DNA from: Octopus sinensis
Taxonomy: Eukaryota
Length of the DNA: 64,000 bases
Assembly (NCBI RefSeq): GCF_006345805.1
Contig: NC_043003.1
Span: 20,336,001-20,400,000, forward strand
Direction: 5' to 3'
Part shown: one piece after another, positions 18,264-20,952 of the stretch
Position numbering within the stretch: position 1 is the first letter of the stretch
Layout: each line of letters begins with the position of its first letter
Program-made: the position numbers and the translations under genes
Notes under the pieces: model-generated
The model's database searches: none
Seen by the model: only the letters and a program-made list of their open reading frames with translations
What the model was told of the DNA's origin: nothing

Positions 18264-18909
18264 ATCATGCATATGTCTGAGTAAATATATTATCGAGAAA
18301 ATTTTGAAATATTTCCAACCAAAAAACTGCACCGTCGTCTCGATCACTGTTCTCTGTTTTGCATTATTCCAGAAGTGAAGTCCTAAGTTCTCTTCATTTC
18401 CATGTTTTCGTAATTTGAATTGGATACAGAAATTTTGGTAAAAATATGGTGCACGTGATTTGAACACCCCTTCTTGGATGTCACTTACACTACTTGGTTC
18501 GTAGCTTCGGGCCCTAATGTAAAGATTTAGCTCAGGTGCAGTTAAAAAAACAAAACAAAACAGGAATATGTTATTAAATGCGTTTTTTCCGAAGGCGGTA
18601 AAATGTGATTCGCTGGAATTTGAGTTGCGATTTCTAGCAGGCTTCACTGCGTATATGCTCTTATAATTACATACATACATACATACATATATACATACAT
18701 ACATACATACATATATACATACACACACACACACACACATACATACATACATACACATACATACATACATACATACATACATAAATACATACATACATAC
18801 ATACATACATACATACATACATACACACACACACTAAGAACTAAGAATATGGATACAAACTGCTAACCCCTAATTTTTACCTCTTTTACTTCCCCACAAA
18901 TTCTTTCTA

Positions 18910-18946
18910 ATATTTGATAAGATGGATACATCGAAACCGGTTATAT
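18910..18946 (+). ncRNA. Minimal hammerhead ribozyme motif, U3-A8 variant
   Basis: ATAT | TTGATAA | GATG-GATA-CATC | GAAA | CCGG | TT | ATAT: core, 4-bp helix II, palindromic helix-III loop, short AU helix I. Confidence 0.6.
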
Positions 18947-19201
18947 ATTAAATCATTCACTGAAGCAAAAATATCAAATATTCCCTAAAATGTATTTCTG
19001 TTCCTTTTCCAACTTTATTTACTTTTTTAACTGTATATATATAATAGTTATCGCCATACTAATATGGCATTCTTATAAAAATAAGAAAAAAGCTGTCCGC
19101 TTATTAGCTCCATGAGGCCATCGCCTTAAGTTAGCTATTTGATACACAAACTGTATCCATATAACCTTCGAACATGGGAGGTCCGTCGCTCCACACTACT
19201 T

Positions 19202-19261
19202 GACCGGCAGCTACAGACGCGTTTCGGGGTATTGCCCCTTTTCAATGCAGCGTAGCCAGCC
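19202..19261 (-). ncRNA. Minimal hammerhead ribozyme motif (antisense twin of 19561-19620)
   Basis: Reverse complement of the motif at 19561-19620. Confidence 0.8.
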
Positions 19262-19560
19262 AGTAGGTGTCGCTTCCGACAATCTCTGTTCGATGGTTTT
19301 ATTTACCTAGTTTCGGTGGAATACATCCACTTGTTTTCAATAATAGAAATATTAAAATAACTAAGTCTCTCTAAAAGAGAACAGCGGCAGCGTTCCCGGA
19401 AGATAATAGTTATCGCCATACTAATATGGCATTCTTATAAAAATAAGAAAAAAGCTGTCCGCTTATTAGCTCCATGAGGCCATCGCCTTAGTTAGCTATT
19501 TGATACACAAACTGTATCCATATAACCTTCGAACAGAGATTGTCGGAAGCGACACCTACT

Positions 19561-19620
19561 GGCTGGCTACGCTGCATTGAAAAGGGGCAATACCCCGAAA
19601 CGCGTCTGTAGCTGCCGGTC
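19561..19620 (+). ncRNA. Minimal type I hammerhead ribozyme motif, U3-A8 variant, predicted cleavage after GUC at 19606
   Basis: GCTGCA | TTGAAAA | GGGG-CAATA-CCCC | GAAA | CGCG | TC | TGTAGC; helix I extends via GGCTGGC/GCCGGTC. Confidence 0.8.
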
Positions 19621-19841
19621 AAGTAGTGTGGAGCGACTGACCTCCCTTGTTCGAAGGTTATATGGATACAGTTTGTGTATCAAATAGCTAACTTAAGGCG
19701 AGGCCTCATGGAGCTAATAAGCGGACAGCTTTTTTTCTTATTTTTATAAGAATGCCATATTAGTATGGCGATAACTATTATTTTCCGGGAACGCTGCCGC
19801 TGTTCTCTTTTAGAGAGACTTAGTTTTTTAATATTTCTATT

Positions 19842-19903
<62 letters not shown>

Positions 19904-20060
19904 ATATAAACAACTTATAAATAAGGGGAAACGAAAAAAATACTAATGCCAAATATGCCGAAGAATTGGTCATATTGTCCATTTACCATATAATTTTTTC
20001 CAAGTACGCACGCTACTCGAAAATAGGTCGACAGAAATCTCTAAAAAATTCCATTATTAC

Positions 20061-20118
20061 CATATCGGATCAATTTCAGGGTTAGTTCAAAAAGAACCCT
20101 CCATTCGTCAGTGATACA
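20061..20118 (-). ncRNA. Hammerhead-like motif (left arm)
   Basis: Minus strand: TGTATCA CTGACGA ATGG AGGGTT...AACCCT GAAA TTGA TC CGATATG. Confidence 0.55.
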
Positions 20119-20337
20119 TGTGGCAAAGAAGTAAATGAGATACTTACTCATACTCACGGAAGAAGCAAACACTAAGTTATGATCACTCTGTGAGTGCCTC
20201 AGTTCAAATCGCACGTGTCTTGAATAGGCTCGACCATTTCTATTTTGGATTTATTTGGTGTACTTAGTTGTGCTCATGACTTAGTGTTTGCTACTTCCAT
20301 GGGTATGAGTAAGTAACTCTTTTACTTCTTTGCCACA

Positions 20338-20394
20338 TGTATCACTGACGAAGGGAGGGTTCTTTTTAACTAACCCTGAAATCGGTCCGATATG
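20338..20394 (+). ncRNA. Hammerhead-like motif (right arm)
   Basis: TGTATCA CTGACGA AGGG AGGGTT...AACCCT GAAA TCGG TC CGATATG. Confidence 0.55.
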
Positions 20395-20626
20395 GTAATA
20401 ATGGAATTTTTTAGAGATTTCTGTCGACCTTTTTTCGAGTAGCGTGCGTACTGGGAAAAAATAGATATGGTAAATGGACAATATGTCCAATTTTCGGCAT
20501 ATTTGGCATTAGAAATTTTTTCGTTTGCCCTTATTTATAAGTTGTTTATAATTTAACGTTTAAAGGTATTTTTTAATATGCTGGCCATTGATAAAATTTA
20601 TTTTCGAAAATCTTTTATCCTACATT

Positions 20627-20695
<69 letters not shown>

Positions 20696-20783
20696 AATGA
20701 TTGGACAAACGAAAGAAGGGCACTCAACAAATTTATTGGAGTTAAATGTATGGATCAAAAAATTTGATCAAATCGTTTGTACT

Positions 20784-20876
20784 CTCGAGTTTCAAGCGTG
20801 ATACTAGTCGTCAGCCATTTTGAATCTGAATTCAAATTAAAAATGGCTGACGATTAGCATCACACTAGAATTCGAA
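20784..20876. repeat. Small inverted repeat of two decayed HHR-like cores
   Basis: Both arms read AAAATGG CTGACGA ..ATCAC.. GAA(A) (C/T)TCGA outward from the centre; element lies between (TA)n tracts. Confidence 0.55.
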
Positions 20877-20882
20877 TTTGAA

Positions 20883-20952
<70 letters not shown>

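Follow-up and report, generated by a model that had tools for sequence, protein, structure and literature searches.

Hammerhead ribozymes (HHRs) in the pseudo-long terminal repeats (pseudo-LTRs) of Penelope-like elements (PLEs) have been described with a short helix I, a palindromic helix III and a U3-A8 core variant, as many families per genome and mostly as solo truncated copies, and pairs on opposite strands 100-700 bp apart have been reported among them (PMC4209133; this and all other papers are cited for the portions consulted). Insertions of PLEs characteristically show a tail on one side and inverted arms truncated at the 5' end (PMC8557442), and a PLE tail has been traced to two internal start sites of reverse transcription, the enzyme cutting AT-rich DNA (PMC11167929). 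The non-LTR retrozymes of animals are head-to-tail monomers of a few hundred nt without an open reading frame (ORF), with one type I HHR each, in genomes that also hold PLEs (PMC7229834; 10.64898/2026.07.22.740005). The view of retrozymes as non-autonomous PLEs is already in print. Here we compare with these systems a cluster in a 64,000-nt stretch of the Octopus sinensis genome (RefSeq assembly GCF_006345805.1, contig NC_043003.1, forward-strand positions 20,336,001 to 20,400,000; hereafter the window). Positions 18834-20959 consist of four unrelated non-coding elements, A to D, with TA tracts between them, and the opposite-strand pairs, the U3-A8 cores and the palindromic helix III of the published PLE hammerheads recur there. 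We interpret them as four separate PLE-ended insertions in one TA-rich spot, B and C being likely PLE-mobilised, protein-free tandem repeats, D the truncated 3' end of a Hydra-clade PLE and A likely similar, a reading to which we give a probability of about 0.85; the families, their ends and tails, the TA flanks, the inverted arms, the ORF link of D and the hammerhead compensation in B and C were each observed directly.

All four elements are dispersed repeat families, as found in searches of the 2.72-Gb genome that scored the best 40 candidates per query (copy figures are accordingly floors), and all four carry the marks of PLE insertion: they end at either of two fixed 3' positions that lie 45-85 nt apart, are flanked by (TA)n, are truncated on the 5' side and have a second arm in inverted orientation. 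The features of the cluster are, in window positions:

18834..19033, plus strand: element A, an old 5'-truncated PLE-type 3' end that stops at the short 3' end of its family; 46 matches
18910..18946, plus strand: HHR of A, with a U3-A8 core, 4 bp in helix II and ACCGGU as helix III; cleavage is predicted after 18942
19041..19535, minus strand: left arm of element B, made up of 1.4 head-to-tail copies of a monomer of 361 nt and stopping at the short 3' end
19198..19262, minus strand: HHR B(-), intact, with extended helix I and a U3-A8 core at 19216-19245
19300..19346 (about), minus strand: B2, a second core look-alike that spans the long 3' end with its stem-loop
19536..19845, plus strand: right (inverted) arm of element B, 0.85 unit, which runs to the long 3' end, about 63 nt beyond the short one
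19560..19622, plus strand: HHR B(+), intact, with its core at 19577-19606; cleavage is predicted after GUC at 19606
19846..19908: (TA)n spacer separating B from C
19909..20186, minus strand: left arm of element C, ending at the short 3' end; HHR at 20063-20111 damaged by substitutions in helices II and III
20186..20628, plus strand: right arm of element C, which runs to the long 3' end; its HHR has the core at 20345-20392 and is predicted to cleave after AUA at 20392
20629..20692: (TA)n spacer separating C from D
20693..20830, minus strand: left arm of element D with the long 3' end, a decayed Hydra-clade PLE 3' end; HHR at about 20766-20830 damaged
20831..20884, plus strand: inverted arm of element D, its hammerhead lost through internal deletions
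20885..20959: final (TA)n tract of the cluster

The ribozymes were sought with a type I HHR descriptor that accepts a C3-G8 or U3-A8 core, in a strict and a relaxed version, with 1000 block-wise dinucleotide shuffles of positions 18900-20885 and 60 shuffles of the whole window as controls. Within those 2 kb three cores passed the strict descriptor, at 18914-18942 (plus), 19216-19245 (minus) and 19577-19606 (plus), and five the relaxed one, which added the cores at 20345 (plus) and 20111 (minus); none of the 1000 shuffled versions held a strict match and one of them held a single relaxed match. The remaining window outside the cluster gave no descriptor match, the 60 whole-window shuffles gave no strict one, and an Rfam scan of positions 16000-24000 at E<=5 returned no hammerhead family and microsatellite noise only. 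An initial annotation, made from the sequence alone, had counted seven HHR-like cores here, in four families with unrelated flanks and TA-rich spacers. The families and spacers are as it described, and its proposal that minimal hammerheads of PLE type occur in several independent families is supported. The cluster of cores is likewise real, with five passing the descriptors and four of the seven apparently intact or nearly intact, but C(-), D(-) and D(+) are damaged; the annotation had called the pair at 20784-20876 decayed. A helix III of one base pair under a palindromic loop, proposed for every core, was found only in A (ACCGGU) and B (ACGCGU); the better fold of C and the relatives of D have a helix III of 4 bp.

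The homing to (TA)n that the annotation had suggested agrees with the arm ends, which mostly run into TA. The distinct ends of B arms comprise 19 in the short bin, of which 16 continue into TA, and 18 in the long bin, of which 13 do; the corresponding figures for the sister family B', described below, are 21 (19 TA) and 16 (15 TA), and 29 short ends were counted in C (26 then TA). The two 3' ends lie about 45 nt apart in A, about 55 nt in D and about 85 nt in C, tails of 45-85 nt overall as against 30-40 nt in PMC8557442, and since such paired ends match the tail described in PMC11167929 we propose two start sites here as well. A PLE endonuclease would nick (TA)n, reverse transcription would start at one of two fixed internal RNA sites to give short and long 3' ends, and it would stop early, a second, inverted cDNA completing the other side. 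The inverted pairs, which are present in B, C and D but not in A, a single arm in the window with inverted arms at other loci, are what a single PLE insertion ordinarily produces, its second arm being inverted and truncated at the 5' end. Divergence from relatives suggests that A and D inserted before C, and C before B, each into a TA tract beside the earlier ones.

Element D connects the cluster to a coding PLE. Its relatives (78 matches among the best 40 of 1,444 candidates, mostly 80-88% identical, with 77 exact core matches) include an intact hammerhead form with a helix I of 3 plus 10 bp, a helix III reading A-CUC-AA-GAG-U and a predicted cleavage after GUA. In the window, helices I and II of D(-) carry substitutions, deletion has removed GAAA, helix III and the cleavage site from D(+), and the CTCGAG reported as a palindromic loop is a substitution in one copy. 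At one locus (L108) the C-terminal end of a PLE endonuclease lies upstream of D, and among 30 loci picked by the endonuclease peptide D was downstream on the same strand in 13 (query locus included), with its hammerhead 750-1030 nt downstream of the GIY-YIG-type endonuclease match, was present only as an inverted upstream arm in five and was not within reach in 12. The description of the elements as ORF-less holds for B and C but not for D. A Pfam scan of the 69-aa endonuclease end returned no family. Longer D copies reach into the reverse transcriptase (RT) and share the D 3' region, and homologs of 650-760 aa carry RWK (52/67), DKT (55/67) and CxCx5C (61/67), which are marks of the Hydra clade (PMC8557442). 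RWK and DKT also occur in the intact Hydra-type families described below and were absent from the matched parts of four long D-type copies, which are broken and match from residue 102 or later. The parent of D has the CxCx5C linker, CxxC/CxH around a conserved E and N, and a (TA)n target, which together with its C-terminal endonuclease are the properties given for the Hydra clade in PMC8557442, and on these motifs D is identified as the 3' end of a decayed Hydra-clade PLE. The annotation knew of no such elements in octopus, but Files S1 and S2 of that paper contain Hydra-1_Obim with a (TA)n preference and a listed HHR, whose helix III of 4 bp with a loop of 1-2 nt is as in D and whose RT block that of D resembles by eye. 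D is nevertheless another family, with a different hammerhead sequence and a longer 3' region, and no intact D copy was found, all D-type ORFs seen being broken.

Element A is likely a truncated PLE end similar to D. Its relatives, the 46 matches listed above being among the best 40 of 266 candidates, are 77-88% identical and extend upstream into more than 1 kb of CA-rich subrepeats; the window copy has a helix I of only 4 bp. No ORF was linked to A in 30 upstream-picked loci and 10 extended loci, and two endonuclease fragments considered as parents were rejected, one 1 kb upstream of A (L160) with other sequence and a TA tract intervening, the other (L193) located downstream of the end of A. 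The U3-A8/ACCGGU hammerhead type of A is also found downstream of Neptune-type endonucleases in the same genome, and a Neptune-type parent is for that reason a lead.

Elements B and C are, on their sequence, non-LTR retrozymes, being short head-to-tail repeats with a type I HHR per unit and no coding capacity. In 30 loci, some of them overlapping, B forms head-to-tail arrays of a 361-nt monomer, often with an inverted 5'-truncated second arm and with outer ends at monomer positions 133-137 or 196. Its HHR combines a U3-A8 core with a bulged, extended helix I, and the monomer fold has a z score of -6.65. Exact matches of the B core pattern number 1,278 genome-wide against none for a control pattern. 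There were 1,001 candidates, and with at least 41 identical 115-nt matches among the 43 matches listed B is very young. The longest stop-free frame in natural B and C arrays is 60 codons, and natural arrays of B, B' and C contain no ATG frame longer than 49 codons. Loci of B chosen away from the HHR hold 0-7 cores, with two or more in 17 of 30, and partial tandems of 1.2-1.5 units are frequent. The C monomer, of about 483 nt, also closes on itself without an ORF; its relatives comprise 47 matches among the best 40 of 1,893 candidates, the full-length ones 93-97% identical, and the hammerhead of C(+) lacks one base in outer helix II. For C the helix III A-UCG-guc-CGA-U, with cleavage after AUA, is the better fold (-12.0 kcal/mol against -5.4 for the register of the annotation). 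Minimum-energy folds did not choose between the registers because the core pairs with helix III in them, and we prefer the 4-bp helix III on the fixed-structure energies and on an unrelated family with the same layout in other letters (L195, A-UUG-auu-CAA-U).

Comparison of sister families shows compensatory changes in the hammerheads of B and C. B', which is 81% identical to B, has a monomer of about 359 nt and the same ends and arrangement (head-to-tail junctions in 26 of 30 loci, both orientations in 20 of 30), and is itself young, its best copies being 98-99% alike. B and B' show 54 modal differences in 361 columns, including 8 in the 42 HHR columns and none at invariant core positions. 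From B to B' the HHR changes are at N7, from G-C to A-U in the first pair of helix II, from CGCG to CAUG, at one loop base and from G.U to G-C in helix I, and one of the eight breaks the last helix I pair. This is the pattern that selection on a dimer-type hammerhead would leave, though it comes from a single split with few events. Between the two C groups, C1 and C2, a U-A pair in helix II becomes C-G, the matching 3' change being present in 19 of 20 C2 loci picked by the 5' letter, and there are 19 modal differences in 481 columns with none in 13 core positions, where only about 0.5 would be expected. Preferential conservation of cores over flanks, named in the annotation as a check, was not found within families (core against flank, 0.89 vs 0.87 in A and 0.87 vs 0.90 in D) and is seen instead as this compensation between sisters; the within-family comparison is non-diagnostic because dead copies are expected to show no extra core conservation.

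The 5' breakpoint of B arms recurs at the foot of the HHR hairpin, in 5 of 42 contexts for B and 18 of 52 flagged for B' (of the 18, three continue with mismatches and several repeat one locus). The window B arm junction uses a TCGAACA/TGTTCGA helix at that foot, and is explained by these recurrent breakpoints. The look-alike B2, which the annotation had overlooked, was considered as a second ribozyme and rejected, since its GAAA reads GUAA in 36 of 37 B' copies with the stem-loop at the long end kept; it is likely not a working hammerhead. A GCCAT-loop-ATGGC hairpin at B monomer positions 105-120, about 150 nt after the cleavage site, recurs in L057, L315, L148 and L223, in L315 at a similar distance from the hammerhead, and is a candidate recognition structure. 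A third, diverged relative of B lies near position 2679 of L212. The B monomer was present in 20 of 24 public sequencing runs, seen as contigs only (14 of the 20 guessed, not recorded, as RNA), and four runs that were examined cover B and C in short pieces without usable start, end or circle evidence. Sequence nearly identical to window positions 19175-19535 occurs in those 20 runs from 12 studies under nine coded organism labels, which may reflect close species, mixed samples or transfer.

For minimal PLE hammerheads the annotation had mentioned cleavage as dimers. The inverted pairs of the window cannot form such a dimer within one transcript, their cores lying on opposite strands, but the head-to-tail copies elsewhere can. 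We consider it somewhat more probable than its contrary that in tandem transcripts of B and C the hammerheads pair up as dimers and cleave, that the monomers circularise and that copying round the circle gives head-to-tail arrays; circles are favoured because long arrays persist despite truncation and because the hammerhead is under apparent selection. A further step, which we put forward tentatively and at less than even odds, is that B, B' and C are active circular-RNA parasites of PLEs, cleaved as dimers, recognised by RNA structure and not by sequence shared with the helper, and copied as circles by a Hydra- or Neptune-type enzyme from two start sites into TA, in which case retrozyme arrays would be made in one insertion step. 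For C a Hydra-type helper would then be named by one locus (L042:250-1303, minus), where a 75-nt C piece runs directly, with no TA, into the truncated endonuclease of another Hydra-type element with its own hammerhead and TA end, possibly through a template switch between parasite and helper RNA in one insertion. Several observations weigh against these interpretations. The chimera is a single case, the B/B' and C1/C2 compensations come from one split each and so amount to few events, and 14 of 30 B' loci chosen away from the HHR have no core. Few 5' ends lie within 3 nt of the cleavage site (5/85 in B, with 1.6 expected and an uncorrected p of 0.025; 1/87 in B' and 2/117 in C), a pile-up that is weak in B and lacking in B' and C and that we do not count in favour of cleavage in vivo. 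The one PLE tested in vitro, from anole, inserted without requiring its hammerhead (PMC11167929), eight of nine Xenopus retrozyme dimers did not cleave (10.64898/2026.07.22.740005), minimal hammerheads cleave poorly in vitro (PMC4209133), and A, B and C have no nucleotide homology to any of 67 ORF-bearing loci, neighbouring insertions aside.

The same elements might instead be copied from an uncut multimeric transcript with no circle, the hammerhead acting elsewhere, in read-through release or with PLE protein bound, and this is a possibility that we take seriously while leaning away from it. The anole PLE mainly used uncut RNA in vitro, with no reads ending at the cleavage site (PMC11167929), and the weak cleavage of minimal hammerheads fits as well. 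That most arms here run through the predicted cleavage site also speaks for it, whereas the spread of their 5' ends would be expected of circles and of uncut RNA alike. Against uncut templates, arrays of up to 7 cores persist though most arms are 5'-truncated, which would seem to need the regeneration of multimers, and mussel, coral and axolotl retrozymes of similar size give circles (PMC7229834). Growth of the B and C arrays in place as minisatellites, by unequal crossing-over from solo pseudo-LTRs, is a model discussed in 10.64898/2026.07.22.740005 and long arrays do exist, but the arrays lie on many contigs with the same two end sites in TA, both arms of one inverted B insertion can be multimeric (L026) and the partial tandems of 1.2-1.5 units are common. 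We hold it to be very improbable, and argue from the array ends that it is retrotransposition, and not the growth of satellites, that builds retrozyme arrays.

A still poorer account is a host-selected regulatory module, working through double-stranded or self-cleaving RNA, in place of a pile-up of insertions. What speaks for it, four families in 2 kb and none in the other 62 kb, is offset by the damage to three of the seven cores, by the differing ages of the elements and by the enrichment of hammerhead elements beside unrelated insertions elsewhere. In 125 loci (12 overlapping ones having been dropped from 137; numbers are small) the count of foreign hammerhead elements falls with distance from the focal one, from 9 in 124 kb within 500 nt through 6 in 121 kb at 500-1000 nt to 1 in 92 kb at 1000-1600 nt, and such clustering fits repeated targeting of the same TA tracts. 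As for terminal inverted repeats of miniature inverted-repeat (MITE-like) or foldback DNA transposons with an incidental likeness to hammerheads, the arms are indeed 92-98% complementary and sited in TA, but this reading is largely refuted, and scarcely credible, given an inversion point that shifts between loci, two ends that differ from each other, the occurrence of single arms and of tandems, the connection of D to an RT and endonuclease ORF and the covariation of the hammerhead helices.

Candidate helper enzymes for the PLE-ended insertions are present in the same genome. Intact young Hydra-type ORFs (717-728 aa; 727 aa) occur in tandem pseudo-LTR form in two families (L217-L246), one copy having pseudo-LTR repeats 99.3% alike (L218, G000:C1:132565023-132570140), and the ends of one intact Hydra family lie in TA in 19 of 19 and 11 of 11 cases with a tail of about 70 nt. 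The HHR of the larger family has a helix II of about 2 bp with a tetraloop and a helix III layout as in D. A young Neptune-type PLE (L310-L314) has a 781-aa frame, preceded by a 479-aa frame in two copies, and a U3-A8 HHR about 900 nt after the stop. Neptune-type PLEs here, which have a CX2-5CxxC linker, carry U3-A8 cores with a CAUG or CCGG helix III, and it is this shared hammerhead type that links them to A, B and B'. A, B and C share no sequence with the 67 ORF loci beyond neighbouring insertions, and a 14-nt B match beside a Neptune-type ORF was rejected as a link, being part of a separate neighbouring repeat.

In kind, then, the locus is already known, being a common target into which two families of retrozymes and the ends of two PLEs have inserted, and what is added is the families themselves. 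B, B' and C agree with the animal retrozymes as ORF-less head-to-tail monomers, here of 360-480 nt and with a G+C content of 34-42%, that have one type I HHR per unit and occur in a genome with PLEs, and the B monomer is close in size to those of mussel (350-390 bp; PMC7229834). Unlike the canonical cores of PMC7229834, B uses a minimal PLE-type U3-A8 core, such cores being also admitted for retrozymes in 10.64898/2026.07.22.740005, and unlike the minimal hammerheads of PMC4209133 it has a long extended helix I. The ends of the B and C arrays show TA targets, inverted arms and PLE tails, which are undescribed in the examined parts of PMC7229834 and 10.64898/2026.07.22.740005. In Xenopus 21 of 57 retrozyme families are linked by sequence to a parent pseudo-LTR, but no such link was found for B and C. 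A description of the four families was not found in literature on octopus hammerheads or retrozymes or on non-autonomous PLEs, though unseen supplements and repeat libraries may hold one; cephalopods are not named in the text portions of PMC4209133 or in its searched supplement files (one file being unsearchable), and the words hammerhead and ribozyme are absent from the main text of the cephalopod repeat papers PMC13282606 and PMC8967140. The value of the locus is as test material, since one genome combines a young B, its diverged sister in which the helices are compensated, and Hydra- and Neptune-type ORFs that are intact. Two questions can be tested here, the mobilisation of retrozymes in trans by PLE enzymes and the cleavage and circle formation of U3-A8 minimal hammerheads in vivo; useful extras are the intact candidate helpers, the PLE ends of the ORF-less arrays and the compensation between B and B'.

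The genome moreover holds a large set of hammerhead elements. The descriptor found 50 distinct HHR cores in 701 kb of loci as against one in shuffled loci, and 17 of the best 20 unassigned rows sort by eye into 13 further families, the other three being B or C variants. These at least 13 further families have a palindromic helix III and helix II loops of up to about 45 nt, and lie in the flanks of L002, L005, L011, L023, L049, L059, L079, L125, L184, L185, L187 and L195. The window as a whole (1-64000) has 16 frames of at least 150 codons, whose coordinates mostly overlap simple repeats. Just upstream of the cluster, at positions 17714-18265, a 184-nt unit is repeated three times head to tail (the copies being 96% alike), and a diverged solo piece lies at 22075-22121; the unit presumably resembles the domains of mollusc short interspersed elements (SINEs).

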